Source: an uncultured Gammaproteobacteria bacterium
Lineage (GTDB): Bacteria; Pseudomonadota; Gammaproteobacteria; JACCXJ01
Direction of reading: 5' to 3'
DNA: 31,209 nt
Assembly: GCA_963764725.1 (NCBI GenBank)
Contig: CAVXTM010000017.1
Location: 1 to 31,209, forward strand
Positions 1 through 22,009 of the stretch are shown here, one piece after another (position 1 is the stretch's first letter; every line of letters begins with the position of its first letter). Below the pieces are notes generated by a model. The model was given only the letters and a program-made list of their open reading frames with translations, was not told the DNA's origin and searched no databases. Made by a program: the position numbers and the translations under genes.

Positions 1-898
1 CTACGCATTCGGTGAAATCGTCGGACTGTGGCTCCGTATCGTAGCCTACAGGCTCTCGCAAAATACCAAGGCGCGCTCCGACAAGCTCGTCCTTATTTAA
101 GAACTTGTGATAGCTCTTCGGAGCACGACCATAGCCATGTGCGGTGCTCGGATCCTCGGCATCAAATCCGACCATGCAATCTAATAATTTGACTAGATCA
201 CCGACCGATCTGGCCATGGGGCCGAGCGATCCGTTGAGGGTCGGCCAACCACCAAAAACACCGGAGCGGCTGACGAGTCCAATGGACGGCCTCATACCTA
301 CGATCCCGTTCCAAATTGAAGGGCGACGGATGGAGGAGAAGCCTTCCTGGCCGATGGCAGCGGTGCAGAAATTAGCAGATACAGCCACCCCGCAGCCCCC
401 CGAAGAACCGCCAGCGGTACGCGTCACATCATAGACGTTGCGTGTAGAGCCGAACAGCGAGCCGTGCGTATCGCCGCCGCCAAGTTCGCCCAATGTCGCC
501 TTGCCCAAGATAATCGCCCCGGCACCCTTGAGCCGACGAACAACAAAGCCGTCGCGGTTTGGAAAAAAGTCTTTGAACAAGACGGAGCCCATTGTGGTGG
601 GCATTCCCACTACATCAATTTGGTCCTTTAATATCAGCGGAACCCCATGCAAAGAGCCAACGAAGCGGCCTTGCTTCATTGCTGCATCGAGTCGGTCCGC
701 TTCGAGCAACGCGTCGGAATTTAATGAAATGATGGCGTTCAAGGCCGGCCCGCTTTGATCGTACGCGTTGATACGATCGAGGTAGATCTGCACAAGTGAG
801 CGCGCGTTGAGGGTGCCGGACTTGTATGCGACATGAATATCATCGATCGTAGTATCAATTACCGAAAATTCTTGTAGCGTCTTAGGTTGTGCAACCAT
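1..898 (-). CDS. Amidase-signature (AS) family amidase, 3' end runs off the window
   Basis: Absent from the ORF track because it has no stop in the window. Manual translation gives MVAQPKTLQEFSVIDTTIDDIH...LHGVPLILKDQIDVVGMPTT...RNVYDVTRTAGGSSGGCGVAVSANFCTAAIGQEGFSSIRRPS, containing the Lys, GGSSGG and SIRxP motifs. GGAG lies upstream of ATG 898; alternative ATG at 913. Confidence 0.9.
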   Translation of the reverse strand, partial: MVAQPKTLQEFSVIDTTIDDIHVAYKSGTLNARSLVQIYLDRINAYDQSGPALNAIISLNSDALLEADRLDAAMKQGRFVGSLHGVPLILKDQIDVVGMPTTMGSVLFKDFFPNRDGFVVRRLKGAGAIILGKATLGELGGGDTHGSLFGSTRNVYDVTRTAGGSSGGCGVAVSANFCTAAIGQEGFSSIRRPSIWNGIVGMRPSIGLVSRSGVFGGWPTLNGSLGPMARSVGDLVKLLDCMVGFDAEDPSTAHGYGRAPKSYHKFLNKDELVGARLGILREPVGYDTEPQSDDFTECV

Positions 899-947
899 TG
901 CATTGCTCCACATTGTTTCGCCCGCACGCTCGATCGGCAGGAGCACC

Positions 948-1649
948 TCAGCCTATATAGGAATGAAAAAGCTCCCTTTCGTTGTCGAAACCGCTCGTCT
1001 TCCCGTGCGTGATAATGGTGCCGCCGCGAATGATGTACACGTAGCTCGCGACCTTGAGCGCCAGATGGATGTTCTGCTCGACAAGTAGAATAGAGGTGCC
1101 CGCCTCGTTCAGCCGCCTGATCGTGCGGCTAAGCTCGCTGACGATCATCGGCGCAAGCCCCATTGAGGGCTCATCCAGCATCAGGAGCTTCGGCTGCGAT
1201 GTGAGCGCGCGTGCAATCGCCACCATCTGCTGCTGCCCGCCTGAAAGTGTGCCGGCGCGCCGCCCCAGATGCGCGCGAAGTTCCGGCAGGTAGTGCAGCA
1301 CGCTTTCGATGCGCTCGGGGATCCTGTCCCGCGCCGCGCACTGGATGGCGCCCAGTTCGAGGTGCTCCATGACCGACATCTCCGTGAACAGCTCGCGCCA
1401 TTGCGGGACCAGCGCTACGCCATGACGGAATACCCGGTGAGTCGGCTGCGCGTGGATGGCCTTGGCCTCGAAGCTCACCGTGCCGCCCTGAACCGGGATC
1501 AGCCCCATGATGGCGCTGAGCGTCGTCGTTTTTCCGGCTCCGTTGCCGCCCAGAAGCGCGACGACGTGCCCCGTTGGCACTTGCAATGACACCCCCTTGA
1601 GCACTTTGTGCGGGCCATATCCCGCCTCCAGCCCCGAGACCTCAAGCAT
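948..1649 (-). CDS. livF: LIV-type ABC transporter ATP-binding protein (LivF-like)
   Basis: Walker A GGNGAGKTT, signature LSGGQQQM, LMLDEPSMGLAP and VEQN. The likely start MLEVSGL at 1649 overlaps the upstream stop. Confidence 0.92.
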   Translation of the reverse strand: MLEVSGLEAGYGPHKVLKGVSLQVPTGHVVALLGGNGAGKTTTLSAIMGLIPVQGGTVSFEAKAIHAQPTHRVFRHGVALVPQWRELFTEMSVMEHLELGAIQCAARDRIPERIESVLHYLPELRAHLGRRAGTLSGGQQQMVAIARALTSQPKLLMLDEPSMGLAPMIVSELSRTIRRLNEAGTSILLVEQNIHLALKVASYVYIIRGGTIITHGKTSGFDNERELFHSYIG

Positions 1650-2415
1650 CCAGCCGCTCCCCCAGATAGGCTTCTTGAACGGTGGGATCGTTCCCGATCT
1701 CCGCACCCGAGCCTTCGGCAATGACGCGACCTCGATCCAACACCGTTATGCGGTCGCAAAGCTTGGTTACCAGCGGGATTACGTGCTCTACAATTATGAT
1801 CGCGACATTCCAGTCCGCCGGCAGCCTCGTTATCACGCCGTCCAGGTGCTCGATTTGCGCGGGTGAAAGTCCGGCCGCAGGCTCATCAAGCATCAGGAGC
1901 CTTGGCCTCGCGACCAAGGCCCGGCCGATTTCGACGTAACGCTGCTGAGCGATGGTGAGCGTTTCCACTATACGGTCCCGCAGGTCGCCCATTCCCAGAT
2001 AGGAAAGCACGTGGCCGATCGCCGCCTCTGCATCAAGGTCGAGGCCCGGATCAGCCCGGTGGCCGACGATGAAGGACGTGAGGGGGTTGCGAACAGCCGT
2101 ATGCAGTCCGAACAGTAGATTCTCATATACTGTGAAGCTGCGGACGAGCTGCACCGTCTGGAAGGTTCGGCGGATGCCCGCCGCGGCTCGCAACGGCGCC
2201 GACATGAAAGCAATGTCCTTGCCGGCGAGCAGCACCTTGCCTGCGGTCGCCGGCGCCAATCCGGAAATCGCGTTGAACAGCGTCGTCTTGCCCGCTCCAT
2301 TAGGCCCGATCAGACCCCGCGTCTCGCCCTGTCGTATCGTCAGGCTGACGCTGTCCACGGCGATCAGGCCATCGAAACGGACGGTAAGGTCTTCAATCTG
2401 CAGCAGCGGTGGCAT
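1642..2415 (-). CDS. livG: LIV-type ABC transporter ATP-binding protein (LivG-like)
   Basis: GPNGAGKTT, RTFQ, LDEPAAGL, VEH and C-terminal VQEAYLG. Confidence 0.92.
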   Translation of the reverse strand: MPPLLQIEDLTVRFDGLIAVDSVSLTIRQGETRGLIGPNGAGKTTLFNAISGLAPATAGKVLLAGKDIAFMSAPLRAAAGIRRTFQTVQLVRSFTVYENLLFGLHTAVRNPLTSFIVGHRADPGLDLDAEAAIGHVLSYLGMGDLRDRIVETLTIAQQRYVEIGRALVARPRLLMLDEPAAGLSPAQIEHLDGVITRLPADWNVAIIIVEHVIPLVTKLCDRITVLDRGRVIAEGSGAEIGNDPTVQEAYLGERLDA

Positions 2416-3416
2416 CAGCGGGCCCCCGTAGCGTCAGCTGTCCGACGCCACCCGAACAGGCTGGACCAGGGCCAGGAATATCGCTCGCGCGGCAGGATGC
2501 CCTTGTCGATCAGGAAACCGGCGAACCCTCTCGGCATGAAGATGACGAACATGATCAGCAGCAGGCCGAAGCCGATTTCCTGCATTGCCTGCGCCTTGCG
2601 CAGGATCTCCGGCACCCAGGTCAAAATGGCGGCGCCGATGAAGGGGCCGGCGAGACTTGCGGCGCCGCCAACGATGACCATGCAGAACTGCATGATGGTC
2701 TGGTAGAGGTTGAAATTTTCCGGGTTGATGTAGTGCTGGGTCAGCGAGAACAGCGAGCCGCCAATGCCGGCAAAGAAGGCGCTGATGGCGAAGGCGAAGA
2801 CCTTCGTGCGTGCGATATTGACGCCGCTGCACTCGGCCGCGATCTCGCTGTCGCGGATGGCGACAAAGGCGCGGCCGAGGCGCGAGCGAATGATGCCCTG
2901 GGCCAGGACAGTCATCAGGATGGCAACAGTCACGATGATCCAGAACGTGTGAAAATCGCTGCGGAACTGGACCCCGAAGAATACGACCGACGGCACGCTG
3001 ATGCCGTCGGTACCGCCGGTCACGGTCTTCCAATGTTTGAGAACCCACTGCACGATCTCTGAAAAGCCGAGTGTTACCATCGCAAGATAGAGGCCGCTTA
3101 CGCGGATCGCCGGAATACCGATGGCGCAGCCCACAAGTGCTGCCACGACGCCTGCCGCCGGCAGGGCGAGCAGGAAAGGTACGCCGAGCTTCGTCATCAG
3201 CAGCGCCGAGGTATAGGCGCCGATGCCCATGAAGGCCCCATGGGCGAAAGCGAACATGCCGGCAAAGCCGAGAATGAGGTTTAGCCCTTGGACGATGACG
3301 ATTTGGACCAGCATGAGATTGATGACATACTGGGAATACGCGTCCGCGACGAAGGCTATCCCCACTAGCGCCACGAATAACAGCAGGAAGGCGTTGTTCC
3401 ATAAAGCGGCGCGCAT
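2415..3416 (-). CDS. livM: LIV-type ABC transporter permease (LivM-like)
   Basis: Multi-TM protein with GLYLAMVTLGF, TGGTDGI, GRAFVAIRDSEIAAECSGVN and FMPRG. Confidence 0.92.
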   Translation of the reverse strand: MRAALWNNAFLLLFVALVGIAFVADAYSQYVINLMLVQIVIVQGLNLILGFAGMFAFAHGAFMGIGAYTSALLMTKLGVPFLLALPAAGVVAALVGCAIGIPAIRVSGLYLAMVTLGFSEIVQWVLKHWKTVTGGTDGISVPSVVFFGVQFRSDFHTFWIIVTVAILMTVLAQGIIRSRLGRAFVAIRDSEIAAECSGVNIARTKVFAFAISAFFAGIGGSLFSLTQHYINPENFNLYQTIMQFCMVIVGGAASLAGPFIGAAILTWVPEILRKAQAMQEIGFGLLLIMFVIFMPRGFAGFLIDKGILPRERYSWPWSSLFGWRRTADATGAR

Positions 3417-3420
3417 CGTC

Positions 3421-4314
3421 TTAGACCCTCACGGCCTGGCGCGAGCCGAGCAGGCCCTGTGGACGGAACAGCAAGACACCCATGATGATGATCGGCGCGA
3501 AAATATCCATCATCGAGGTCGCGATGTAGCGTCCGCAGAAGATCTCGAGGACGCCCATTAGTATGCCGCCGACCAGAACGCCAGAAACACTGCCGAAGCC
3601 ACCGAGGCAAGCCGCCGCAAAGCCTTTCAGGAGCATGCGGGTTCCCATGTCCGGGTGCACGAAGATCAGTGGGGCCGCGAGTACGCCTGCGACGGCGCCA
3701 CAGACAGCCGCAAGACCCCAGGTCGCGGAGTGGATATAGCTTGTGTTGATGCCCACCAGCTTTGCCCCGATGGTGTTCTGCGAGCTCGCGCGCATCTTCT
3801 TGCCGAGTGCGGTGCGAGCGAAGAACAGCGACGTGGCGATCGTCAAGGCGACGGTGACGCCTACGATCAGCAGACGCTGCGTGGACAGGACCAGGCCACC
3901 GATAGTGACAGTCTCGGCGGTGAAGGCGGCCGGCAGGTTGCGAACGCTGTCGCCCCATGGAATTCGCGCCAAGCCCTGCATGACGATCATCAGGCCGACC
4001 GTCGCCAGCACAACCGCGACCTGGGTTGAGGCGCGCCCGAGCGAACGATGCATTGAGATCGGCCTGATCGCCAGGAGTTCCACGACGATGCCAATTGCGC
4101 CGCCGACGGCAATGGCGAACAGCAGCGACAGGCCATATGGAATGTTCAGCAGGACGTTCGCGGTGTAGGCCGCGAAGGCGCCTACCATCAAGAGTTCGCC
4201 ATGAGCGAAGTTGGGAATTCCTTGCGCGTTGTAGACCAGGACCAATCCCAGTCCGACCAGTCCATAGAGACAACCGTTCGACACCCCTACGGATAGTAGA
4301 GTAGCGATTTCCAT
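3421..4314 (-). CDS. livH: LIV-type ABC transporter permease (LivH-like)
   Basis: NFAHGELLMVGAF, GKKMRA, KGFAAACLGGFGS and RPQGLLG. Start taken at MEIATLL (ATG 4314). Confidence 0.92.
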   Translation of the reverse strand: MEIATLLSVGVSNGCLYGLVGLGLVLVYNAQGIPNFAHGELLMVGAFAAYTANVLLNIPYGLSLLFAIAVGGAIGIVVELLAIRPISMHRSLGRASTQVAVVLATVGLMIVMQGLARIPWGDSVRNLPAAFTAETVTIGGLVLSTQRLLIVGVTVALTIATSLFFARTALGKKMRASSQNTIGAKLVGINTSYIHSATWGLAAVCGAVAGVLAAPLIFVHPDMGTRMLLKGFAAACLGGFGSVSGVLVGGILMGVLEIFCGRYIATSMMDIFAPIIIMGVLLFRPQGLLGSRQAVRV

Positions 4315-4345
4315 TGTGCCGCATCCAGTCCGTGTCCGTTTCGGG

Positions 4346-4382
4346 CCTTCGGCGCGGCCGCCAACAGGCGGGCGCCCGAAGG
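4346..4382 (-). other. Intercistronic GC-rich stem-loop downstream of the binding-protein gene
   Basis: CCTTCGG...CCGCC-AACA-GGCGG...CCGAAGG inverted repeat with no U-tract. This is the typical position for an mRNA-stabilising hairpin in ABC operons. Confidence 0.4.
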
Positions 4383-4418
4383 GCACCCGCCCACACAAGC
4401 AGGCGATCGAGTCCGCGG

Positions 4419-5603
4419 TTATTTCCAGCCGTCTCCGAGGACGGTGATCTTGCCGCCGCGCACCCCCCAGATCGATCCGGTCTTGCAGCCTTCGTGATCT
4501 CCCGCCGAGAAGGTGAGCTTACAGGCCATGGGGCCGCCATCCAGATTCTTGATCTCGGTCATCGCCGCTACAAACTTCTCGCGCGTCAGGTCGGGACCAG
4601 CACGCTTTAGCGCCTCGACCACTGCGAGCGCGCCCGATGTGCCGTAGAACGCAGAAGCCTGTACCTTGTCGTTGGGATAATGCTTCTTCAGCATGTCGAT
4701 CCAGGGCGCCATCGGTGCCTCGGTGAGTGGCGCTTTGAAGACCGACACCACGTGCATGTGCTCCAGTGGCTTGACGTCGCCCGCGCGATCGATCAAGTCC
4801 TGGAGGTCGACCACGGTGGCACCGACCATCGGCTTGTTCAGGCCGAGCTTGCTCGCGTCCTTGAGAAACACAGCCGCTGGAGCGGGACGCGCGACGATGA
4901 CGACCGCGTCAGGGTTTAGCGACTTGACCTTCAGTACCTGCGCGGTAGCGTCGGTGAGTTGAACTTCAACCGTTTCGAAACCCTGGAGCTCGATACCGCG
5001 CTTCTTGAGGCCTTCCGTCAGCGTGCCGTAGCGGGCGTTGGCGTGCTCGTCCGAGTGGCCGACGACCACCACCTTCTTGACGTTCGGAACTGTCCCAAGG
5101 AAATCCGCGATGATGGTGCCGTCGAAGCTGCCGGGCAGGAAGGCCCGGAAGACGTAGCCGTTCGGCTGCTTCTGGACGATCTGGTCCATTGTCGCGACCA
5201 GGATCATCATCGGGACCTTGTTCGCAATGACCTCGTCGCGCACGGGGAGGATGGCGCCGGAGCAGCTGCCGCCATGAAGCATGAAGACACCGTCGCGATG
5301 GATCAGCTTCTTGGCCGCGGCGATTGCCAGCGGCGCCTGGCATTGCGAATCCTCGGCCATCGTCTCGACCTTGCGGCCGTGAATTCCGCCTTCCGCGTTG
5401 ACGCGATCATAGACCATCCTGGCGCCATTGATCGTAGGCCAGCCCCAAACTGCGGCAGGCCCGGTCAGCGATCCGATCATCCCGATCTTGATCGACGTCT
5501 TGGTGATACCGGGATCGTTCGCGCCGGCGGTTGTCGGGAACACCGCCAAGGACATGGCCATGACGGTCGCCGTGACTGTGGGAAGACTTGCCTGAGGTTT
5601 CAT
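4419..5603 (-). CDS. LIV-family ABC substrate-binding protein (LivK/LivJ-like, Peripla_BP_6)
   Basis: Signal peptide ending AGA, then PGITKTSIKIG, LTGPAA, VNAEGGIHGRK and AGPDLTREKF. First gene of the ABC operon. Confidence 0.9.
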   Translation of the reverse strand: MKPQASLPTVTATVMAMSLAVFPTTAGANDPGITKTSIKIGMIGSLTGPAAVWGWPTINGARMVYDRVNAEGGIHGRKVETMAEDSQCQAPLAIAAAKKLIHRDGVFMLHGGSCSGAILPVRDEVIANKVPMMILVATMDQIVQKQPNGYVFRAFLPGSFDGTIIADFLGTVPNVKKVVVVGHSDEHANARYGTLTEGLKKRGIELQGFETVEVQLTDATAQVLKVKSLNPDAVVIVARPAPAAVFLKDASKLGLNKPMVGATVVDLQDLIDRAGDVKPLEHMHVVSVFKAPLTEAPMAPWIDMLKKHYPNDKVQASAFYGTSGALAVVEALKRAGPDLTREKFVAAMTEIKNLDGGPMACKLTFSAGDHEGCKTGSIWGVRGGKITVLGDGWK

Positions 5604-5807: not shown

Positions 5808-5853
5808 CTACAGCATGTAGGTATATTGTTTATATCGGAACCGTACCTGTCAA
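5808..5853 (-). promoter_or_regulatory. Promoter (TTGACA -35) and palindromic operator CTACA-GCA-TGTAG upstream of the ABC operon
   Basis: TTGACA on the minus strand at 5853-5848, with AACAAT after a 17-bp spacer. Palindrome at 5808-5820. Confidence 0.65.
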
Positions 5854-6048: not shown

Positions 6049-7320
6049 TCAGCGGAGAGCTCCGACTAGCCACAACGAAATAGGCGCCAACATCACGATC
6101 ACCGCCAGAGCCGCCGTCATCAGTATGATAAAGGGAAGAACGGCTCGGATCATGAAGGTGAAAGGTACCTTGAACGCCACCGATCCCACAATGATGTTTA
6201 GCCCCACGGGCGGCGTCAGGTAACCGATCTCCAGATTAATGACCATGATGATGCCGAAGTGTATCGGATCGAAGCCGTATTCCTTGACCAACGGCAAGAA
6301 AAGCGGTGCGAAGATGATGATCGCGGAGAAGGCCTCCATAATGCAGCCGATGACCAACAGCACGAGGTTGATGACCAACATCATACCCCAGCCACTATGG
6401 ACGTACTGTTTCATGAAGGCGACAAGCTGCTGCGGCACTCCCTCAATGGCAACAACGTTGTTGAGGCTCGAGGCGATCGCGAAGATTGGCAGGATGATGC
6501 CCACCATCTCCACCGTTGCTAGACACACGTTTCCGTAGTCGCGCAGTTTCATCTCGCGATGAATGAACAGCTCAACGACCAGTGCGTAGAACAGCGACAC
6601 GGCGGCGGCTTCCGTTGGCGAAAACTTGCCCGAATAGATGCCGCCAAGCAAAATCACCGGCATCATGAGCGCCCATCCGCCCAAGCGCACGGCCTTCGTA
6701 AGCTCTGAGAAGTCGAAGGAGCTCGCGGCGCGGTGCCGATTCATCCACAGGACGTATGCTGCCATAACGAAGACAAGCAGCAGACCCGGACCGACACCTG
6801 CGGTGAACAGGTCGACGACCGAAGTCTCCGTGCTCATGCCATAAAGCAGCAGTGGGATAGATGGCGGGATGATGATGCCGAGCGTGCCCCCGGCCGCGAT
6901 CGACCCGAGCGCAAGCTTCTCGTCGTAGCCCTCCTTGAGAAGCGCTGGATACATGATCGCGCCGACGGCCAGCATGGTGACTACCGATGAGCCTGAGATC
7001 GCGGCGAAGGTCCCGCAGGACAGCACACAGGCGAGAGCGAGCCCCCCTCGTACCGGTCGCGTCAACGCGATCACAAGGTTGATGATACGCTGCGCGATAG
7101 TTCCGCGCGTCATCACGGCGCCGGCGAGGATGAACATCGGGATGGCCAACAACGTCTCGCGGTCGATTGCAAACCAGAAGTCCTGAATCAGGAACTCAGT
7201 GGACGAGCGGCTGACGAGGAAGACGTGTATGATCGTGGCGACAACCGCGAGCAGCACGATGATGTTCTGGCGCAGCGCCAGCAGCAGCAGCACCAGCGCA
7301 AACAGGGCGACGCCGCTCAT
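6049..7320 (-). CDS. dctM: TRAP transporter large permease
   Basis: LLAIPMFILAG, AISGSS, GGTLGIIIPPSIP, SPTEAAAV, DPIHFGII and TPPVG motifs. Confidence 0.95.
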   Translation of the reverse strand: MSGVALFALVLLLLALRQNIIVLLAVVATIIHVFLVSRSSTEFLIQDFWFAIDRETLLAIPMFILAGAVMTRGTIAQRIINLVIALTRPVRGGLALACVLSCGTFAAISGSSVVTMLAVGAIMYPALLKEGYDEKLALGSIAAGGTLGIIIPPSIPLLLYGMSTETSVVDLFTAGVGPGLLLVFVMAAYVLWMNRHRAASSFDFSELTKAVRLGGWALMMPVILLGGIYSGKFSPTEAAAVSLFYALVVELFIHREMKLRDYGNVCLATVEMVGIILPIFAIASSLNNVVAIEGVPQQLVAFMKQYVHSGWGMMLVINLVLLVIGCIMEAFSAIIIFAPLFLPLVKEYGFDPIHFGIIMVINLEIGYLTPPVGLNIIVGSVAFKVPFTFMIRAVLPFIILMTAALAVIVMLAPISLWLVGALR

Positions 7321-7868
7321 CCGGCTTCGCTACCTTCGGCGGGCATGAGATCGGGAAAGATTGCGTAGGCCAAGTAACGCAGGGTCGCCGAGGCGAACGC
7401 GTATGGCAGGATAATTTGCATCGGCCAGACTGGAGTTTCGAGCGCAACGCCGCGATAGCCGCTCAGATAAGACGCGTGGACGAATAGAAAGGAATGGTAG
7501 GCCAGAAAAAGGAACACCACAGCCGACAGCAGTGCACCTATGCGCACCACCGTCGGCTTGGTAACCTCCGGAAAGACACCGTCCAGAAATTTCGTACGGA
7601 GGTGCCCGCCGCTTTGGATCGCAAGCACGAAGCCCAGCATACCGGCTATGGTGGCGCTATACACCGCGACGCGCTGAGCCCAAGGAACGCCCTGGCCGAA
7701 AAATTCACGAGACAGCACGTCAGCCATCAGCAGCAGGCCGCAGGCGGAGATGCTGACAATGGCCGCTGCCGCCTCGATTCGGAAAAGCCAGTCGAGCAGG
7801 GTATGAATGGCCCGTTCACCAGGCATTTGGGTGGAGGTGGCCACGGAACCCGAGTGCCTGACCTTCAC
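7317..7868 (-). CDS. dctQ: TRAP transporter small permease
   Basis: Four TM segments, DVLSR..., PWAQ and GGHL, located between dctP and dctM. Start is either GTG 7868 (overlapping the dctP stop) or ATG 7826. Confidence 0.88.
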   Translation of the reverse strand: MKVRHSGSVATSTQMPGERAIHTLLDWLFRIEAAAAIVSISACGLLLMADVLSREFFGQGVPWAQRVAVYSATIAGMLGFVLAIQSGGHLRTKFLDGVFPEVTKPTVVRIGALLSAVVFLFLAYHSFLFVHASYLSGYRGVALETPVWPMQIILPYAFASATLRYLAYAIFPDLMPAEGSEAG

Positions 7869-13727: not shown

Positions 13728-14450
13728 TTACGGAACGCGAGCCCCGGCGGCATCGACTACATCAACGCCCGAAGCTGCCATCTCCTTGGACGGGCTGCCG
13801 CTGCCACCGCTCATGCCCCGGATGAAGTCGTCCGAGACGCCCGCCGGCCGTATCTCGAAGATTTCAGTCACGGAGGTGTAGTCGAGATAACCCATCCGGG
13901 CGAGCGGCCGCATCTTCACGATATCCAGCTTGCCATCCTTGCCGATGTAGTCGTCGTTGATGTGGATACCGACAACGCGTCCTATGACTACCGAATTGAA
14001 CATGCCCGGCGTGTCGTTCGCCAGTACGATCGTTTGGTAGTGTTTGCACTCCATGTTGATCGGGCTTTCCTTCACGCGCGGTGGCTTCACCAGGCGCGAT
14101 TCGGCTGGCGTGAGCCGAGTCGCCGCCATCTCGTCGACGTCCGGCTCTTCGATCATGCTTGACTCCACGACGGCGTCGCGCAGTGCATAGGTCGCCATGT
14201 TGTAAACGAACTCGCCGGTTGATTCGGCGTTGGTGACGCTATCCGTGCGCGTGCCATTCCAGCGATTGTATGCCGAGAACATTACATAGGGCGGATCCCA
14301 GCCCAGAATGTTGCTCTGGCTGAAGGGCGCGAGATTGACGACGCCGCCACGGCTGATGGTCGAGATCCAAGCTATCGGCCGAGGTACGACGCAAGACTTG
14401 AACGGGTTGAACGGCAATCCGTGATCGTTCTTCGCGGGTTCATAAAACAT
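13728..14450 (-). CDS. Flavin reductase-like FMN-binding protein (DIM6/NtaB family)
   Basis: PFKSCVVPRPIAWIST, NLAPFS, TGEFVYN, PPRVKESP and PLARMGYLDY. GAGG RBS before ATG 14450. Confidence 0.9.
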   Translation of the reverse strand: MFYEPAKNDHGLPFNPFKSCVVPRPIAWISTISRGGVVNLAPFSQSNILGWDPPYVMFSAYNRWNGTRTDSVTNAESTGEFVYNMATYALRDAVVESSMIEEPDVDEMAATRLTPAESRLVKPPRVKESPINMECKHYQTIVLANDTPGMFNSVVIGRVVGIHINDDYIGKDGKLDIVKMRPLARMGYLDYTSVTEIFEIRPAGVSDDFIRGMSGGSGSPSKEMAASGVDVVDAAGARVP

Positions 14451-14498
14451 CGACAACCTCTTGTGGCGCGGCCCTGGAAAAATGTGCGGTGGGAGGCC

Positions 14499-15561
14499 TC
14501 ACAGGTCGAGTACCAGGCGCGGTGTGCGCGAACGGCCGCAGCAGACCATCATTACAGTGCCTGCTGCCTTCTCTTCATCGGTCAGGATCGTGTCGCGATG
14601 GTCCGGCACCCCCTCGAGAACCCGGGTCTCGCAGGTGCCGCAATAGCCTTCCTGACACGAGAACGTCACCGGCGCGTTGGCGTCCTGAAGAACACTCCCT
14701 AGGCTACGATCAACCGGCACCTGCAGCACCAGTCCCGACCGGCGCAGCTCCACCTCAAACGGCTGGCCTCGTTCCTCGCCTACCGCCTTTGGCGCGTCTT
14801 CGTCCGCTGAGAACCGCTCGATGTGCAACGCCTGCGTATGTCCGTGCGCGACGGCCGCGCTCTCCAGCGCCTTCAGCATGACGTTGGGGCCACAGCCATA
14901 GATGGTTGCGTCCGGTTCGAGCCCGGACAGAAGTCCGTCGATGTTGGGAGGCCCGACCTCGTCCTGCGGCAGCAGCGTGATCTCGCCGCCGTGGTGTTCC
15001 GCGAGCTCACAGAGGAAGCCATTGTGGTCCGCGAGCGGCCACCATAGACCAGCCGCCATTGCTTGCCAGCAAGCTCCGCCTGCCGGATCATCGGCAGTAT
15101 CGGCGTGATGCCAATGCCCCCGGCCAGGAACAGGTAGCGTGGCGCGTCGACAAGTTGGAAACGGTTGCGCGGTCCTCGCGCGCGGATGGTCGCGCCAACC
15201 CTGGCGGCGACGTGGATTTCCTCCGACCCCGCCGCGTCCCGCCGCCTCGCGCAGGACAGCGACACGATAGCGCCTAGTGTCTGCCGGATCGCCGCACAGC
15301 GAGTATTGACGGACCTTGCCAGAACCCAAAACGAGATCGATATGCGCGCCCGGGCCCCAAGCCGGGAGCACGGCGCCGTCGGCGCGTACCAGCTGGAGGA
15401 TCCATGATCTCGGGTGTCTCGAGGGCAATGCGCTCGACGACAAGCACCATGTCGCCGTCATTGGCAACCGGCGCCGTCGCCTCATTCTCGCGAACACCGA
15501 GATTGACCGCTTGCCGTTGCAATCTTGTGGCAGGTTCGAGCTGGTTCGGCATGTATCCCAT
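14499..15561 (-). CDS. PDR/VanB-type FMN-[2Fe-2S] oxidoreductase with three frameshifts; may be the C-terminal half of a P450 fusion
   Basis: Pieces across three frames: VLVVERIALETPEIM / LPAWGPGAHIDL..RQYSLCGDP..REAAGRGG / SEEIH..GPRNRF..AGGIGITPI..YGGRSR / YGCGP..HIERF..CQEGYCGTC..MMVC. Indels near 15402, 15228 and 15017. Confidence 0.88.
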
Positions 15562-15565
15562 GCCA

Positions 15566-16840
15566 TCAACTTTTCGCCGGCGGCGTCCACTCCGCCTTGA
15601 GGTGGTTGATGGTGGTCACGGTCATGACAGGGAGGTACTCGACGGTCTGGCCGGGTGACACACGGATATCGGGAATGCGCTTGAAGAGCTCCTCGAAGGC
15701 CGCCCGCGCCTCCAGGCGTGCTAGCGGATTGCCGAGACATGAATGGCGACCATGGCCGAATGCCAGATGCTTCTCGCGGTTCGGGCGGTGGATGTCCCAC
15801 TTCTGTGAATTTGGGAAATGGCTTTCATCTACCCCGCCGCCGATGAAAAGCAGCCACACCAACGAGCCTTCCGGGACCAGCGCACCGCCGAGTTCGACAT
15901 CCTTCGTTGTGATTCGGAACAGGCCGGGGGAAGTGCCGCGCAGCCGCAGCGTTTCCTCGACTACGTTGGACAGCAGGCTCGGGTTAACCCGCACCTCGGC
16001 ATGCTGCTCGGGGTGCTCGCACAGATGGATGAGCATCAGGCCCATAAGGTTGGCGGTGGTGTCGTTGCCTGCCGCAACGAGCTCGTGGAGCTTTCGCACG
16101 ACGCGCGGCGTCGGCATCGCCTGGCTACCAGAGGCATCCTTCACCTGAAGGATCTGGCTGGTCAGGTCGCCCGCCGGGCAGCGTGCGCGTTCGGCCACGA
16201 ATTCTTCAAAGAACTCCTGGCTCTCGGCCAAGCGCGTCCACCGCGCCCGCCGCTCCTCCTCGCTCATCGGCTTGGTAACCGCGTCCTTGGTCTTTGGCGT
16301 GAGCACGGAAAAGAGGTCCTCAGTCCAGATGCGGTAGTCAGCGGCGCGTTCAGGCGGAACGCCAAGCAGGCCGATGATGACGTTGAGTGAAAGCGGATAG
16401 CAGAACTCCTGCATGAAATCGCACGATCCCCTGCCGATGAACCGGTCTATCAGCATATTTGCGATGCGCCGGATGTTCGGTTCCTGCTTCTGGAGTTCGC
16501 GCGGCAGGAAATGGCGTGCGACGGCCGTGCGATCGGTCGTGTGTTCGGGCGGATCGAGCGAGATGAAGTGGTACGCAAGGTAGTTGTCGGGGATTTTATC
16601 CTTCAAGTCGGCCGGTGGTGGCACGAAGCCGGTGGCCTTGGACGAGAAGGTCTCCCAGTCTCGCGCTGCGCGGCAGATGTCGTCGTACCGCGTGACTACC
16701 CACATCCTGAGCGGCGGATAGTAGAATACGGGTTTGGTTTCCTGCGCGCGCTTGATAGTCGGGACAGGATTACTGAGGAACTCCTGGCTGAAAGGATCGA
16801 AGCCCTCAAGGACGGGGAACGAGGCGGTGTCATGTGACAT
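15566..16840 (-). CDS. Cytochrome P450 with a CYP116-like N-terminus
   Basis: FDPF..PVFY..WVVTRYDDI, DPPEH, I-helix AAGNDTT, EETLR and heme motif FGHGRHSCLG. Start MSHDTASF at 16840. Confidence 0.95.
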   Translation of the reverse strand: MSHDTASFPVLEGFDPFSQEFLSNPVPTIKRAQETKPVFYYPPLRMWVVTRYDDICRAARDWETFSSKATGFVPPPADLKDKIPDNYLAYHFISLDPPEHTTDRTAVARHFLPRELQKQEPNIRRIANMLIDRFIGRGSCDFMQEFCYPLSLNVIIGLLGVPPERAADYRIWTEDLFSVLTPKTKDAVTKPMSEEERRARWTRLAESQEFFEEFVAERARCPAGDLTSQILQVKDASGSQAMPTPRVVRKLHELVAAGNDTTANLMGLMLIHLCEHPEQHAEVRVNPSLLSNVVEETLRLRGTSPGLFRITTKDVELGGALVPEGSLVWLLFIGGGVDESHFPNSQKWDIHRPNREKHLAFGHGRHSCLGNPLARLEARAAFEELFKRIPDIRVSPGQTVEYLPVMTVTTINHLKAEWTPPAKS

Positions 16841-16914
16841 GGCGGCAATATCCTGCTTTTGCGCCCGCACGTTGCGCCCGGCAGCAATCGGGCGATCTCT
16901 GATGCCGAAATTTG

Positions 16915-16954
16915 ATACATCTTGTATATTCTTTGGTGTCTGTCTTGCTGTCAA
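16915..16954 (-). promoter_or_regulatory. Promoter (TTGACA-N17-GAATAT) overlapped by operator ATACA-TCT-TGTAT upstream of the P450
   Basis: TTGACA at 16954-16949. The palindrome at 16915-16927 overlaps the -10/+1 region. Confidence 0.7.
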
Positions 16955-17155
16955 CTCGGAATTGGAAAACCGGCCAAATCCGTAAGGAGCGGCTGAATTC
17001 CACCCGTCGAGATCAAGGCGGCCAAAGAGAAATCTGCTGCGGTCGGGAAGCACCGTGCGGTCCGCGGCGTACTTGGCTTGCGGCCGAACGCCGTGAACCC
17101 TACCTGGATTGCTACGCAGATCTGGACCGTGTGGCGTGGCGCGAAGGCCCTCATG

Positions 17156-18193
17156 CTACCGGCCTGGCACCCGCATTTCCTCTGGCAGGATCTCGCCGTC
17201 CGTCAGAATCTGGCGGCCGTCGAGGAAAAGCGAGCAGCGCTTTAGCGGGATGTCGAGATGACATTCGGTATCGTTTGTGCCGCCGAGCTCGGTGTTCGGC
17301 CCGGTCGAGAACAGCACGTTTCCGTAGTAGCAGCGGCCGTCCACGCCAAGGCTATCGGAAGCCTCCGGACTCGTGGCGAGGAAGGTCCAGCGCGCATTCT
17401 CGTCGAGGCCCCAGCCGATGTGCGATACGGCATAGGCCTTGGGATCCCGAAACCCCATCATGAAGTCGCGCATGATCGCGCCCTCTGCACCGCCGCCCGC
17501 AATGTCCGTGATATAGCCCTTCTTGATGGTGAGCACGATCGGCTCCGAAACGTAGCGTAGAATCGGGTCGAGAAGCAGGTCACCGGAATCGATCACCACT
17601 GTACCGTCCACCCCATCCTCGTCGCCGCCAGTCCACACGAAGCAGCCTGCCCAGGCATCCCAGCGTCCGGGCTCGTCTGTATAGCCGTACTGGCTCACGG
17701 TCTTGAGCTTGCCTATCCGATAGGTGACGTCTGTCCCGCCCGGCGAGGTGATGCGCAGCTCGCGCGCCCCTGCGATCAACCTGTGCGCCGCCTCGACGCG
17801 CCGACGCAATTCCGGCGAGGAGAGCAGGCGCGACAGCACTCCCATCGGCTCCAACACCAGTAGCATACGCGGGCCGGCAGCGGTGATCTGGTCTTGCTCC
17901 TTCGACCAAAGCAGACCGATCAGGTCGATGACCATGTCGGTGTTCTTCAGCGCGTCGATAGCAGCTTGCTGGCCTCGCAGCGAATTGCCTGGACCAAAGA
18001 AGCTACCCGGGCGCTTGCGAATGTTGACGTGAAGGGTGTCGGCGCCAAGATCCTCGGCCGCCGCAGAGAAAGCCAGCGCGTAGTCTCTGCGGATCAAATC
18101 TTCCGAAAGGATGCCAATCCGTTCGCCAGGCTTTACCTTGCACAGTTCGAGTTCCTTCCGGAACAGATCGAACATGTTCTTGTCGACACTCAT
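17156..18193 (-). CDS. nicX: 2,5-dihydroxypyridine 5,6-dioxygenase-like (NicX/Hpo family, M29 peptidase fold)
   Basis: YGYTDEPGRWD, SHIGWG, GNVLFSTGPNTELGG and CHLDIP (His/His/Asp iron ligands). GAGG RBS before ATG 18193. Confidence 0.88.
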   Translation of the reverse strand: MSVDKNMFDLFRKELELCKVKPGERIGILSEDLIRRDYALAFSAAAEDLGADTLHVNIRKRPGSFFGPGNSLRGQQAAIDALKNTDMVIDLIGLLWSKEQDQITAAGPRMLLVLEPMGVLSRLLSSPELRRRVEAAHRLIAGARELRITSPGGTDVTYRIGKLKTVSQYGYTDEPGRWDAWAGCFVWTGGDEDGVDGTVVIDSGDLLLDPILRYVSEPIVLTIKKGYITDIAGGGAEGAIMRDFMMGFRDPKAYAVSHIGWGLDENARWTFLATSPEASDSLGVDGRCYYGNVLFSTGPNTELGGTNDTECHLDIPLKRCSLFLDGRQILTDGEILPEEMRVPGR

Positions 18194-18231
18194 ATTCAAC
18201 CTCTGAACTCGGTGGGTGGAGGGGATCGCCT

Positions 18232-19734
18232 CTACGCGTAAGAGATGTTGAGGGCCGCATCCACGAGCCGACCGGCACGATCGAAATCGTAGTTGCGGTA
18301 CATGTTCGTTTTCACGAGATAGGCTGCACCTCCGTAGAACTTCTCGTACTGTTGGTGGCGGCTGCCGAACTCGGAACCGATGAAGTCCCAAGCCAGCCGC
18401 ATCAATCTCACGCGATCGCGGGCGCTCATCTCGCGTGATACATAGTACCGTTCGATATCGGCGCACTGTTCAGGATTTTCGAACTCCTTGCTGGAGGAGG
18501 GCAGCGAGATCATCGCGGCGCCCGTCAGCTCACGAACGATGTCGATCATGTGCGAGTTGATCTTGGACTGCAGTGCCATCACCGCGTAGAGCGCAATTTT
18601 CGACGGCCAAACGATGCCGCTGGTATCGATTAGGCCCGACACCTCATGGGCGTAAAGCATCTGCTCAACAAGTGAGGCGTAGGCGGCGAGTTCACCCATC
18701 TCCACCTGTACAGGCGGAGCCTTGTCGTTGCCGGTCGCCTCGTTCAAACGCTTTGCGAGACCGAGTAGGAACCGCAGCTTCGTTGCGTAGCGCGCCTGCG
18801 CCTGATGATTGCCATAGGAATGCGACGGCGTCGCCCACCACTGCTGGAAGCATAAGTCGACGTTGCGGTAGATGAAGACGTTTTCCCAAGGCACATGGAC
18901 ATCGTCAAGCACGACAAAGCTGTCGGTCTCGTCGAAGCGCATGGTCAACGGATAGTCCTCCACGCTGGATGCCCTGAGGGTGAAGGCCCGCCGCGAATAG
19001 AGCTTTAAGCCCGACGCGTCTATCGGGATAGCGACGCTGATGGCATAGTTCTCGTCACCAGGGCGCAGTGGATGGATGCAGCTGAGGTGGAGGTAGTCGG
19101 CGAAGATCGCGCCTGTGGCGAGCTGCTGACCGCCTTTCACGATGATTCCAGAATCGGTTTCGCGAACCACGCCGGCATAGAGCGTCGGGTCGGACTGCTG
19201 ATGCGCTGGGCGGCTGCGGTCGACTTGCGGCGGAACAATCGCATAAGCGACGTACTTGTGGTTGTCGCGGATGTGCCTGTAGAAGTTTAGCAGGTTCTCG
19301 GCGTAACCCTTACCGCCGGCATCGAAGAAGCTCGGCACCGCGGCGTAGCCCGCAAAGAAGTTCGCTACGTGGTCCGGCGTGCGCCCCATCAGACCAAAGG
19401 TCTGCTCCGCCCACCCCTCGGCCGCGATCCGCTTGTCGCGAAGATCGGCGTGACTGCGGGGAATTTGGAAACAGCGCCAAACAGGCCCGCCTGTGTCGGG
19501 CGAGGTGAAGGTCATGCGCTCGCGGTTCTCCGGAGCAGCTGCATAATCGAAGAGGTAGGCGAGCGTCCGGGCCGCTCCTTTGAACGCTGCATGGTCCACG
19601 ACGTTCGTAACCCGGTCGCCCTCGACGAAGACCGTGCGCTCGCTGGCTCGCAGGTCCGCCAAGTAGCTCTCGCCAGTGCGCAGTGGCACAGCGCCGTCGA
19701 TAGTCTTGAAGGCTTTTGCCTGTTGAACAGTCAT
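18232..19734 (-). CDS. HpaB (4-hydroxyphenylacetate 3-hydroxylase) family FADH2-dependent monooxygenase
   Basis: RTGESYLADLR, GLMGRTPDH, PPQVDRS, RFDETD, VPWENVF and FGSRHQQYEKFY. Confidence 0.93.
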   Translation of the reverse strand: MTVQQAKAFKTIDGAVPLRTGESYLADLRASERTVFVEGDRVTNVVDHAAFKGAARTLAYLFDYAAAPENRERMTFTSPDTGGPVWRCFQIPRSHADLRDKRIAAEGWAEQTFGLMGRTPDHVANFFAGYAAVPSFFDAGGKGYAENLLNFYRHIRDNHKYVAYAIVPPQVDRSRPAHQQSDPTLYAGVVRETDSGIIVKGGQQLATGAIFADYLHLSCIHPLRPGDENYAISVAIPIDASGLKLYSRRAFTLRASSVEDYPLTMRFDETDSFVVLDDVHVPWENVFIYRNVDLCFQQWWATPSHSYGNHQAQARYATKLRFLLGLAKRLNEATGNDKAPPVQVEMGELAAYASLVEQMLYAHEVSGLIDTSGIVWPSKIALYAVMALQSKINSHMIDIVRELTGAAMISLPSSSKEFENPEQCADIERYYVSREMSARDRVRLMRLAWDFIGSEFGSRHQQYEKFYGGAAYLVKTNMYRNYDFDRAGRLVDAALNISYA

Positions 19735-19783
19735 CAATTAATTCCTCTGCGCCGGACAGAGCTTCACCACCAGCGCTCTTAGC

Positions 19784-19815
19784 TACAAGATGTATATATA
19801 GCCTAGAACTGTCAA
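19784..19815 (-). promoter_or_regulatory. Operator TACA-AGA-TGTA and TTGACA in the divergent monooxygenase/marR intergenic region
   Basis: Palindrome at 19784-19794. TTGACA on the minus strand at 19815-19810. Confidence 0.7.
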
Positions 19816-19913
19816 CCCGTTTGTCTTGCCGCTTGGAACGCTTTGGTGGTACAGGGCCGGACCGAAGTACGGAAGTGGCGTCGCGCCACCTTCATCGATC
19901 TAGTGGGATTGGA

Positions 19914-20462
19914 ATGCCGGAGCAGTATCACCCACCACCTACCACCTCGCGGGAAGAATTCTTCAAGGATGGTACGGATCAGCTTTTTCGGGAGGCCATA
20001 TATACTTGGGTTCTGAGCGTCGAACGGCTTCTCAAATGTAGGAAGGCCTTCGCCCGCATCTCGGGATTAACGTCCTCCCAATTCGTCGTCCTGATGGGCG
20101 TTGCTACCCTACAGAAGGCACATGGCGTCACGATCAAGGATGTCGCAGAGCACGTCGCGCTGGCCTCGACGCACGTGACGACCGAGATCGGCCGGCTCGA
20201 AGCGAAGGGCCTGCTGGTCAAGAGAGAAAACCACAGCGACCGCCGCAGCGTGCTCGTCTCATTGACGCGCAAAGGCGAAAAGCAGATCGAGCGGGTGAGC
20301 CCGATCGTCAGAGAGACGAACGACGTGCTCTTCCGTGGCGTTACGCTAAAGGGCCTGATCAATGCGCATGTGGTCGCGAGACAGCTGGTTGCGAATTCGA
20401 GCGACGCGCTGACCTTTCTGCGTAAGACCGCCACCAGCACCGCGAAGAAGCCGAAGCGCTGA
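19914..20462 (+). CDS. MarR-family transcriptional regulator
   Basis: GLTSSQFVVL, winged HTH TIKDVAEHVALASTHVTTEIGRLEAKGLL and DRRSVLVSLTRKG. Divergent from the monooxygenase. Confidence 0.92.
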   Translation: MPEQYHPPPTTSREEFFKDGTDQLFREAIYTWVLSVERLLKCRKAFARISGLTSSQFVVLMGVATLQKAHGVTIKDVAEHVALASTHVTTEIGRLEAKGLLVKRENHSDRRSVLVSLTRKGEKQIERVSPIVRETNDVLFRGVTLKGLINAHVVARQLVANSSDALTFLRKTATSTAKKPKR

Positions 20463-20497
20463 AGCTGCCCACGCACCCGGATTGTTCCCGCTCCGCT

Positions 20498-21926
20498 CTA
20501 CGGCTGGATGGCCGCACCCCACCGCGACAGCACGTCCTTGCTCTCGCGGATGCTTAACGCCGACGTCTTCGGGTAGGCGCCGAGGTGCTGGAAGGGGATA
20601 CAGGCATCGATAATCATTTTCGAGTTGGAGGTCAGGCCGACGTCGCGGTCGGCGGGCGATATGCGCGGGTCAAGCGACGAGCTCCAGGTGTTGCGCACGA
20701 TGTCGACGTCCTCTGACGGCTCCGCCCGCGTCGCGACGGCCCACATGACGTCAGCGAGATTCGTAGGGTCGACGTCCTCATCCACCACTACGACGATGCG
20801 CCCCATATAGCTGTTCGCGGCTGCAATGAGGGCAGCACGCTTGGCATGGCCGGCGTAGCGCTGCTTGAGCGCTATGACAGTCATGAGCTGCGAGACGTGC
20901 TGCCACGCGCCGACGATATCGGTAACGCCCGCCATTTCGAGGTTCGACCAGAATTCCCGCTGCTCGAAACGACAGTCCGAAATGAAACCGTGGTGGCTTC
21001 AACGGCGGCGACCCGAGCAAGATTGGATCGTTGCGGTGGTAGACCGCTGAGACTTCCATAACCGGAGCAGGCCGCTTGTCGGCCGCGTAGTAGCCGGTGA
21101 ACTCCCCAAACGGACCTTCAGGCAGACTAGTGTCCGCGAATGGAAGAAGCACGCCCTCGAGGACAATTTCCGCCCTTGCGGGAATGGGCAGCTTCGTTCT
21201 AGGCCCGGCATGAACCGGTATGGGCGCTCCCTTAATGGCGCCGGCGAAATCGAGCTCCGAAACGCCTTCTGGCAAATACTCAAATCCCGAAATGAACAGC
21301 GCCGGGTCTTGACCACACACCACTACTACAGGACACGGCTGTCTCTTTTCCCAGAAGCGTTGGGCTATGATCGCACCGTGTCGACCCTTGTGATCGAATT
21401 GGATGGTCACACGCTTCGCATCATGAACCTGGACGCGATATATTGAACTATTGATCCAGCCATTTTCAGGATCGCGGCTCACGACCAGAGCTCCTGAGCC
21501 AATGTACGCACCACCATCGCCGCTGTGCCAAATTGGAGAGGGAAGCTTCAAAACATCGACATCAGCTCCCTCAATTACGTTTTCGAAAAAAGGAACATCA
21601 TTCGTCTCCTCCGGCGGCATAAGCCTGAGCTTGCTGCGACGTTCCTTCCACGCGCGAAGCGCATCGATGGCGGTCAAGGTGTGATCGATGCCCAATGCAA
21701 GCGCTGCCCTCTTCAATCCCACGGTCGCGTTGGTGAAGACGCGATGGCCGGGTCTCAGTCCAGGAATGTGATCAAAAAGCAGGGCGGGACAATGCGGCAT
21801 TCCCGCCGCTACTTCCGTAATAGCGCCGATCTCGTAATCGGCGCGCGCACCGGAAACCCGCTTTAGATCACCGATGGCATCTACCCTATCGATGAACTCC
21901 CGCAAATCGCGATAATCCACATCCAC
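20498..21926 (-). CDS. UbiD-family prFMN-dependent (de)carboxylase with one frameshift near 20952 (~475 aa if corrected)
   Basis: DLREFI, DGGAYIG, NSSIYR, QDP and EGPFGEFTGYY in frame 20778..21926. VVVVDEDVDP..VMWAVATR..LDP..SKMIIDA in frame 20498..20935. Removing one base in GGAATTCTGG joins the two frames. Confidence 0.9.
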
Positions 21927-21988
21927 GGAACTCGCTCCCTCACCATGCAGTATGCCGTGTAGCGATAATCACAAATCGACAAAGAAAC

Positions 21989-22009
21989 TACAAGAACGTA
22001 CATTATGTA
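21989..22009. promoter_or_regulatory. Operator TACA-TTA-TGTA, with an adjacent partial copy, upstream of the UbiD gene
   Basis: Exact site at 21999-22009 and TACA-AGAA-CGTA at 21989-22000, in an AT-rich patch about 75 bp upstream of the ATG. Confidence 0.65.

Follow-up and report, generated by a model that had tools for sequence, protein, structure and literature searches.

How would a bacterium obtain the dihydroxypyridine that is opened in a maleamate-type pathway, if none of the enzymes described as its suppliers is encoded next to the ring-cleavage gene? This question is raised by contig CAVXTM010000017.1 (C17), all 31,209 bp of which were analysed and are called the window here; it is one of the 19 contigs of a 4.21-Mb metagenome-assembled genome (MAG; G000). 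The first 22,009 nucleotides carry a catabolic gene cluster in which a NicX-like ring-cleavage dioxygenase and a NicD-like hydrolase stand together with a UbiD-type decarboxylase, an HpaB-type oxygenase and a cytochrome P450 (Table 1). With a probability of roughly 0.55, we read it as one copy of a rare, horizontally spread, MarR-controlled regulon for the breakdown of a substituted (hydroxy)pyridine through a variant maleamate pathway, in which UbiD and HpaB would replace NicC. Most likely, the substrate would be a pyridine carboxylic acid or a compound that is converted to one.

The pyridine ring is part of nicotinate, of alkaloids and root exudates, and of many pesticides and drugs, and to our knowledge the routes described so far to the central dihydroxypyridine all rely on molybdenum (Mo) hydroxylases, flavoproteins of the NicC, HspB or HpaM type, PicC or diiron enzymes. 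If the proposed reading is true, dihydroxypyridine would be formed in a new way, by a decarboxylase dependent on prenylated flavin mononucleotide (prFMN) that is paired with an HpaB-type hydroxylase and supplied by a P450, and a PhdA-like enzyme would have its first physiological role outside phenazine decay.

The 55 open reading frames (ORFs) of the window were scanned with Pfam and NCBIfam models, and their translations were inspected. Nineteen co-directional genes run on the minus strand from position 19737 down to 2; the set also comprises a divergent marR and a convergent ubiD gene. All catabolic gene types that a first-pass annotation, made from the DNA letters alone, had named are indeed present in this one cluster, mostly on the minus strand. 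That annotation had also seen NicX and NicD without their customary partners, and none of the 55 ORFs encodes a Mo-hydroxylase, a NicC-type flavoprotein, a PicC-type enzyme, a NicF-type isochorismatase (PF00857) or a maleate isomerase such as NicE; the models MoCoBD, FAD_binding_3 and Amidohydro_2 gave zero hits. A maleamate-type lower pathway without Mo-hydroxylase and NicC or PicC as feeders agrees with the view that the route differs from those known for nicotinate, picolinate and nicotine. The PDR-type reductase and UbiD genes are frameshifted, however, the amidase gene is cut by the contig end, and UbiX (PF02441) is missing from the window, as is an aldehyde dehydrogenase gene; the frameshifts and the lack of UbiX had escaped the first-pass annotation, as had the doubtful binning of the contig. 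A PF02441 gene was found on another contig of the MAG (C13).

A link between the genes is suggested by a short palindrome, TACA-N3-TGTA, of which the window contains five exact copies when 0.06 are expected; none of 100 shuffled sequences reached five, and two control words did not occur in the window at all. Intergenic DNA makes up 9% of the cluster and contains all five sites, which lie 46-205 nt ahead of the starts of five units; many, if not most, of them are found just downstream of a TTGACA box, and the end of the last one (21999-22009) marks the right edge of the cluster. As background, 14 sites were counted in the other 4.18 Mb of the MAG and one in 904 kb of unrelated loci. We read this palindrome as a putative operator through which a single MarR regulon ties together UbiD, HpaB-NicX, P450-PDR, the group of short-chain dehydrogenase/reductase (SDR), flavin reductase 1 and deformylase, and the importer of the ATP-binding cassette (ABC) type. 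The claim that the cluster is one system is thereby supported for these five units, but not for the Ech/coenzyme A (CoA)-transferase pair and the tripartite ATP-independent periplasmic (TRAP) transporter, which have no upstream palindrome, even when one mismatch is allowed.

The same palindrome is found in other genomes. In Oryzicola mucosus, seven of the 19 sites of the genome precede UbiD, marR, P450, reductase 1, ABC genes, NicF-NicX and SDR-deformylase, and an eighth precedes a marR paralogue. Three sites were found in the metagenomic locus L034, and the extended site TAATATACATAATGTATATTA also precedes the SDR gene both there and in Oryzicola (L008). The marR gene is convergent with ubiD in the window and in Oryzicola, the two MarR proteins being 70% identical. 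Further Oryzicola sites, two of them 108 bp apart (G044:C28:63421-63539) and about ten single ones, may mark more members of the regulon.

A MarR-family regulator, here a candidate repressor, beside a maleamate-type pathway recalls NicR and BpsR, which are described as MarR-type repressors controlling nicotinate genes and sensing 6-hydroxynicotinate (PMC6837509). The window MarR matches BpsR at an E-value of 5.6e-7, however, which is no better than its match to other MarRs. A shared operator would be a cheap handle for finding the inducer.

Co-occurrence in other genomes provides the second line of evidence. A species-level genome scan with NicX returned eight loci, four of them at 87-90% identity, from two Ancylobacter genomes (L005, L006), Pseudolabrys (L007) and Oryzicola mucosus (L008). 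The deformylase-like hydrolase (68-74% identity) and the SDR (70-80%) adjoin NicX in all four, and the P450 (84%) and the PDR are adjacent to it in the three loci from Ancylobacter and Pseudolabrys; the Oryzicola P450 copy is 75% identical to that of the window. A NicF-type isochorismatase precedes NicX in one Ancylobacter locus (L005) and in Oryzicola (L008), and an amidase 75% identical to that of the window follows the NicD-like hydrolase in Pseudolabrys. Orthologues of the ABC importer (67-78%) stand beside the NicD-like and SDR genes in Ancylobacter, and were also found in L034 and on Oryzicola contig C6. In Ancylobacter and Pseudolabrys, the contig with NicX also carries HpaB (65%), reductase 1 and UbiD-UbiX, 19-45 kb away from it; reductase 1 (46% identity) adjoins HpaB in Ancylobacter, and UbiX is adjacent to UbiD in three relatives (G041, G043 and G044, the last being Oryzicola).

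The fullest orthologous set, with 65-90% identity, is spread over three contigs of Oryzicola: C5 carries UbiX, UbiD and MarR, and C6 the P450, PDR and aldehyde dehydrogenase genes, a partial reductase 2 (79% identical), reductase 1 and the ABC genes, while the amidase, NicF, NicX, SDR and deformylase are present as well. The UbiD clade occurs in four of four genomes of the NicX clade and HpaB, at full length, in three. In an order sample of 301 genomes, NicX (90% identity) and UbiD (at least 70%) were each found in one genome only, namely the Ancylobacter genome used as the centre of the sample. The assumption that UbiD, HpaB and the reductases, P450/PDR and SDR belong with NicX gains from these counts, and the hydrolase and the ABC importer recur with them in Oryzicola, Ancylobacter and Pseudolabrys, whereas Ech/CoA-transferase is absent from the NicX neighbourhoods and TRAP was seen in the window only. 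Oryzicola mucosus ROOL2 and Ancylobacter vacuolatus DSM 1277 are cultured carriers of the genes, which makes the question directly testable.

The lower part of the proposed pathway has precedents among known enzymes. The NicX-like protein matches the solved NicX 7CN3 at an E-value of 4e-77, residues 68-340 aligning with residues 78-348, and keeps all four Fe(II) ligands, His265, Ser302, His318 and Asp320. The two histidines and the aspartate are invariant among 50 aligned NicX relatives, and the serine is found in 49 of them, being replaced by alanine in L012. For the alpha/beta hydrolase, the best match is 4L0C (E-value of 4.5e-69 over residues 6-258, runner-up 3.9e-20); the title of this entry says only 'Deformylase', and we take it to be Nfo of P. 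putida S16. In place of NicF stands an amidase-signature enzyme, a candidate hydrolase of maleamate or of another amide. Compared with the nic cluster of P. putida KT2440 (NicX, NicD, NicF, NicE) and the Hpo-Nfo-Ami-Iso set of strain S16, the window shares the iron ligands of the dioxygenase, a deformylase homologue and an amide hydrolase, and NicF-type isochorismatases adjoin NicX in its relatives. It differs in lacking NicAB, NicC and NicE, in the substrate pocket of NicX, in the ever-attached SDR, whose gene adjoins the NicD-like one in all close relatives, and in its feeders, which would be UbiD, HpaB and P450. Judged by its sequence, the lower part therefore resembles the nic/Hpo-Nfo maleamate pathway but would not be counted as a canonical nic cluster.

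For UbiD, one of the putative feeders, the intact Ancylobacter orthologue, 68% and 82% identical to the two UbiD pieces of the window, matches 7PDA at an E-value of 2.3e-114, the next best solved structure following at 1.7e-44; vanillate, protocatechuate and ferulate decarboxylases are at E-44 or weaker. 7PDA is PhdA, with which Mycobacterium fortuitum decarboxylates phenazine-1-carboxylate, an N-heteroaromatic acid. This agrees with the earlier suggestion that UbiD decarboxylates such an acid. As with PhdA and PhdB, a UbiX partner adjoins UbiD in the relatives; in contrast to PhdA, the window enzyme would belong to a single-ring pyridine pathway and not to phenazine degradation, and its gene is frameshifted and without UbiX.

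HpaB is equidistant from several solved HpaBs (about E-76). As in the HpaBC 4-hydroxyphenylacetate 3-hydroxylase, both HpaB domains and HpaC-type flavin reductases are encoded, but its scores stay far below the equivalog cut-offs (316.2 versus 480.2 for TIGR02309 and 282.5 versus 885.2 for TIGR02310), and it is accompanied by genes for the pyridine ring. In Oryzicola, two contigs (C2, L008:3-95; C6, L135:3-95) end in the same 38-codon 3' fragment of HpaB, and the assembly yielded no HpaB of full length. The best solved match of the P450, 7X53, was uninformative for its function, and structure searches with the ABC binding protein and DctP returned distant, uninformative matches only. The P450-PDR-aldehyde dehydrogenase operon of Oryzicola and the ever-present SDR would fit a role in oxidising a ring substituent, step by step, to a carboxylate. 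No route pairing UbiD, P450 or HpaB/two-component enzymes with a (di)hydroxypyridine was found in the main texts of open-access papers and preprints, in line with the first-pass statement that the gene combination matches no described pathway.

Taken together, the following order of events is proposed. The MarR repressor would bind the palindromes overlapping the sigma-70-like promoters of five units, namely the ABC importer, SDR-reductase 1-deformylase, P450-PDR-reductase 2, HpaB-NicX (divergent from marR) and UbiD. P450/PDR, SDR and an aldehyde dehydrogenase, the last being part of the Oryzicola operon and absent from the window, would oxidise a ring substituent to a carboxylate, which the PhdA-like prFMN enzyme, together with UbiX, would remove. 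HpaB and a flavin reductase would hydroxylate the ring to a dihydroxypyridine, decarboxylation and hydroxylation being conceivable in either order, so that the two steps would jointly replace NicC, PicC or HpaM. The NicX-like enzyme would then open the ring, the Nfo/NicD-like hydrolase would take off the N-acyl (formyl) group, and the amidase, or the NicF-type isochorismatase of the relatives, would release ammonia and maleate. Ech, CoA-transferase and TRAP would be a later addition from a hydroxycinnamate-type locus and would either form a further feeding branch, likewise leading to an aryl aldehyde, or be an unrelated passenger.

A more detailed version of this scheme is tentative, and we would give it clearly less than even odds. 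Here, a 6-hydroxynicotinate- or 5-hydroxypicolinate-type acid would be decarboxylated non-oxidatively by the PhdA-like UbiD with UbiX and re-hydroxylated by HpaB, constituting a NicC-independent entry. The acid would come from the oxidation of a ring methyl group by P450, SDR and aldehyde dehydrogenase, perhaps also, in this lineage, from the CoA-dependent retro-aldol removal of an acrylate side chain; one MarR with the TACA-N3-TGTA operator would control the genes, and a NicX with an altered pocket would be tuned to another diol. Such a route would be the aza-analogue of the conversion of p-cresol or p-coumarate via 4-hydroxybenzoate and phenol to hydroquinone. It is speculation on our part that the substrate might be a pyridone with an acrylate side chain as formed by cleavage of the benzo ring of quinoline; the full-text literature yielded nothing usable on this point.

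Several observations weigh against the pyridine regulon as we propose it. Every chemical step is assigned from family membership. The palindrome was spotted by eye in the window before it was counted, which makes the window statistic post hoc, so that independent support is carried by the sites in Oryzicola and L034. No site was found in the Ancylobacter and Pseudolabrys loci with NicX, HpaB and UbiD (L005, L006, L007, L025, L027-L029), whose MarRs are only 33-44% identical to that of the window, and the latter has no specific solved relative (best match at an E-value of 2e-7). HpaB is represented in Oryzicola by a 38-codon fragment only, and the window protein is nearest to ortho-hydroxylating HpaBs (about E-76), which is compatible with a 2,3-diol and a 2,5-diol alike. 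Both PDR and UbiD are frameshifted in this copy, one PDR shift being common to two other sequencing runs. NicX contacts 2,5-dihydroxypyridine through Leu104, His105, Glu177 and His189 (PMC7910607). The window protein keeps Leu104 and has H105W, E177Q and H189A, i.e., three of four substrate contacts are altered. In the 50-sequence alignment, pockets of the W/Q/A or W/Q/S type at these three positions occur only at 60-96% identity to the window protein (23 W/Q/A, one W/Q/S and four W/Q/H among 28), and W/Q/H and F/E/H types dominate below 60%. The altered pocket means that the ring-cleavage substrate may be a different or substituted diol and not plain 2,5-dihydroxypyridine.

The changed residues holding the pyridone carbonyl, E177Q and H189A, would also suit a phenolic route without any N-heterocycle, in which a compound of the p-coumarate or p-cresol type would be converted to 4-hydroxybenzoate, then by UbiD to phenol and by HpaB to hydroquinone or catechol, the NicX-like enzyme cleaving a benzene diol. 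The Ech scores above the cut-off of the hydroxycinnamoyl-CoA hydratase/lyase (HCHL) equivalog, the same MarR type and palindrome are found before the gene of a major facilitator superfamily (MFS) transporter and Ech in the hydroxycinnamate loci L030-L032, and HpaB is nearest to phenol-type hydroxylases. We nevertheless regard this route as improbable. The hydrolase matches a structure of the N-formylmaleamate deformylase type far better than any other, a NicF-type isochorismatase or an amidase is part of the same operons and neither has a role without a ring nitrogen, and the UbiD clade is far closer to PhdA than to the decarboxylases of phenolic acids.

Somewhat less unlikely, but still well behind the pyridine regulon, is the possibility that unrelated modules have accumulated on a mobile region in decay, with maleamate-type pyridine genes, hydroxycinnamate genes (MarR, Ech, CoA-transferase, TRAP) and a phenolic-acid decarboxylase/hydroxylase sharing no common pathway. 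Such an origin would account for the fragments of an insertion sequence (IS) of the IS3 family and the broken genes flanking the cluster, for a gene order that is different in every genome examined, and for the lack of a palindrome at Ech and TRAP. It would likewise suit the loci L030-L032, where the closest Ech (91% identity) and CoA-transferase (77-78%) copies stand with MFS and TonB receptor genes, feruloyl-esterase-like hydrolases and a MarR 65-69% identical to that of the window, and with zero pyridine genes. Against it, five units have a palindrome in common in the window, and likewise in Oryzicola; the UbiD and NicX clades, each so rare in the order sample, occur together in all four genomes of the NicX clade; the gene of reductase 1, which probably serves HpaB, stands between those of SDR and deformylase both in the window and in L034; and L034 repeats the order deformylase-Ech-CoA-transferase-ABC.

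Table 1. Features of the window and the evidence for their assignment.
Feature	Position	Strand	Remarks
Amidase-signature amidase	2-946	-	PF01425, E 4.9e-65; first 315 codons only, truncated by the contig end
LIV/HAAT-type ABC importer (two ATPases, two permeases, Peripla_BP_6 binding protein)	948-5603	-	
Palindrome TACAGCATGTA	5809-5819		205 nt upstream of the ABC binding-protein gene
TRAP transporter DctM, DctQ, DctP	6049-8872	-	
Family III CoA-transferase	9040-10188	-	PF02515, E 1.2e-97
HCHL-type Ech	10188-11036	-	NF006588
Alpha/beta hydrolase, candidate Nfo/NicD-like N-formylmaleamate deformylase	11200-12003	-	4L0C; GHSMG elbow
Flavin reductase 1 (HpaC/HsaB type), likely HpaB partner	12032-12643	-	PF01613, E 8e-41
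SDR dehydrogenase	12694-13443	-	
Palindrome, core of TAATATACATAATGTATATTA	13511-13521		67 nt upstream of the SDR gene
Flavin-reductase-like protein 2	13728-14456	-	PF01613, E 3e-14; 3BPK, E 1.5e-26
PDR-type (FMN/NAD/2Fe-2S) reductase for P450	14499-15561	-	three 1-base indels
Cytochrome P450	15566-16840	-	frame intact
Palindrome TACATCTTGTA	16916-16926		75 nt before the P450 gene, shortly after a TTGACA box
NicX-like Fe(II) ring-cleavage dioxygenase	17156-18190	-	W/Q/A subclade
HpaB-type oxygenase component, two-component flavin monooxygenase	18232-19737	-	PF11794 and PF03241
Palindrome TACAAGATGTA	19784-19794		divergent HpaB/MarR promoter region
MarR-family regulator, candidate repressor of the five palindromes	19911-20462	+	winged-helix domain
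PhdA-like UbiD (prFMN) decarboxylase	20498-21926	-	one 1-base indel near 20950
Palindrome TACATTATGTA	21999-22009		72 nt upstream of UbiD
Muramidase-like ORF (phage-endolysin-like)	22292-23554		TIGR02594 and GH108; GC content at third codon positions (GC3) 0.91; directly right of the cluster
IS3-family transposase remnants	25262-26401		HTH_Tnp_1, then partial rve
Second leuB copy	29503-30565		broken by two frameshifts

The idea that the pyridine module is joined to a hydroxycinnamate-type side-chain removal found little backing. Due to the lack of a palindrome at Ech and its closest relatives being in plain hydroxycinnamate loci, Ech, CoA-transferase and TRAP are probably an add-on, and the link of Ech/CoA-transferase to the pyridine genes is not established. 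Both genes are missing from the NicX neighbourhoods of the four NicX-clade genomes, where Ech homologues of at least 50% identity were found only in Oryzicola, on a different contig. Of the 37 metagenomic Ech loci of at least 6 kb, only L034 repeats the junction, with SDR, reductase 1, deformylase, Ech, CoA-transferase and ABC genes and no TRAP. CoA-transferase copies 77-79% identical to that of the window follow Ech in L030-L032 and in L034, and TRAP was seen in the window only, not in L005-L008, L034 or L135.

The Ech itself reaches 358.8 bits with NF006588, the model of p-hydroxycinnamoyl-CoA hydratase/lyase, at a cut-off of 276, and matches the HCHL structures 2J5I and 2VSS of P. fluorescens at an E-value of 2e-90. 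Its residues E143 and Y75 are kept, S123 is changed to threonine and Y239 to isoleucine, and this tyrosine is also missing in all 23 aligned metagenomic Ech homologues. In HCHL, Tyr239 presumably contacts the phenolic hydroxyl group; a literature search found nothing on this residue. Hydroxycinnamate loci with a MarR repressor are known from the CouR/cou cluster of Rhodopseudomonas palustris, and the window resembles such loci by having MarR, ABC and TRAP genes near an HCHL-like Ech. It differs in having a CoA-transferase instead of the CoA ligase, in encoding neither a vanillin nor a benzaldehyde dehydrogenase, and in the position of these genes amid those for the pyridine ring. The promoter regions of Ech (11037-11199) and SDR (13440-13560) have a TTG(A/T)CA box followed by CGGGCAGCA in common, suggesting a duplicated promoter; at the place of the palindrome, the Ech copy has TACAAAGCTACA. 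Ech and CoA-transferase may be co-transcribed from the SDR promoter.

As far as its sequence tells, this copy of the cluster is incomplete or damaged, given the frameshifts in PDR and UbiD and the missing UbiX and aldehyde dehydrogenase genes. The PDR gene changes frame near 15404, 15225 and 15015, and the UbiD_N, UbiD and UbiD_C domains are all present, but split across two frames; together with the two shifts in leuB, the window contains six indels per 31 kb, two of which fall into short homopolymers. Positions 9000-22000 were compared with Logan contigs from four sequencing runs on soil or rhizosphere, which belong to four studies; joints and loose ends with sides of about 20 letters, stemming from conserved genes of other organisms, were left aside, and neither stretches lacking contig cover nor small word shares were taken to indicate habitat or absence. 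At position 20952, all three covering runs have one base fewer, which restores the UbiD frame, and run X1 has frame-restoring alleles at 15015 and 15404. At 15225, by contrast, the contigs of X2 (15071-15310) and X5 (15157-15307), which come from two studies, are identical to the window, so that one PDR shift at least seems to be real in this lineage. The UbiD shift would be either private to this assembly or an error.

It is quite conceivable, at slightly less than even odds, that the frameshifts arose as errors in the consensus of a mis-binned contig built from long reads at low coverage, and that the cluster is intact and working in its real host. Other runs have a frame-restoring allele at three of the four covered sites, the remaining indels by which the strains differ lie between genes or measure 3 nt, and leuB on the same contig is shifted as well. 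Frame splits also occur elsewhere in the MAG, affecting four of 77 orthologous ORFs at three loci (C12:23386-26023, C13:5401-6433 and C10:114093-114910) in comparison with a genus relative (G001, an unpublished genome). This corresponds to roughly three indels in about 85 kb of compared genes, however, so that the window is denser in them; moreover, the 15225 shift in short-read contigs speaks for a real change, and errors in base calling explain neither the missing UbiX nor the missing aldehyde dehydrogenase.

The contig itself is in all likelihood foreign or mis-binned DNA of a Steroidobacteraceae-like soil bacterium. Its leuB is only 56% identical to the MAG's own leuB on C2, 57-58% identical to that of two genus relatives and 48-51% identical to that of three alphaproteobacteria, whereas metagenomic LeuBs reach 87-92%; the named ones among its relatives are from Steroidobacteraceae (90%), Steroidobacter (80-82%) and Povalibacter (80%). 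Since this Steroidobacteraceae-like leuB differs from the MAG's own, mis-binning is probable. The catabolic genes have no paralogues elsewhere in the MAG, the cluster DNA (11000-22000) gave three short matches of 30-69 bases only in 40 relatives of the MAG, and megablast of positions 9000-22000 against a plasmid collection gave zero matches. The tetranucleotide similarity of the contig to the rest of the MAG (0.974) is within the range of other short contigs and does not decide its binning. Our analysis draws attention to indel problems and a probable error of binning in the source MAG. To the right of the cluster, about 5 kb around 24-29.5 kb contain almost no ORFs with a coding-like GC3.

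Around the NicX module of Ancylobacter (L025-L026-L005) and Pseudolabrys (L027-L029), a conserved island of about 55 kb was observed. Besides HpaB, reductase 1 and UbiD-UbiX, it holds a Mo-hydroxylase, CoxG, two trios of FMN_dh, TPP-enzyme and aldehyde dehydrogenase, a class III aminotransferase, an Amidohydro_2 protein, a Rieske ferredoxin, a luciferase-like monooxygenase and DUF2848.

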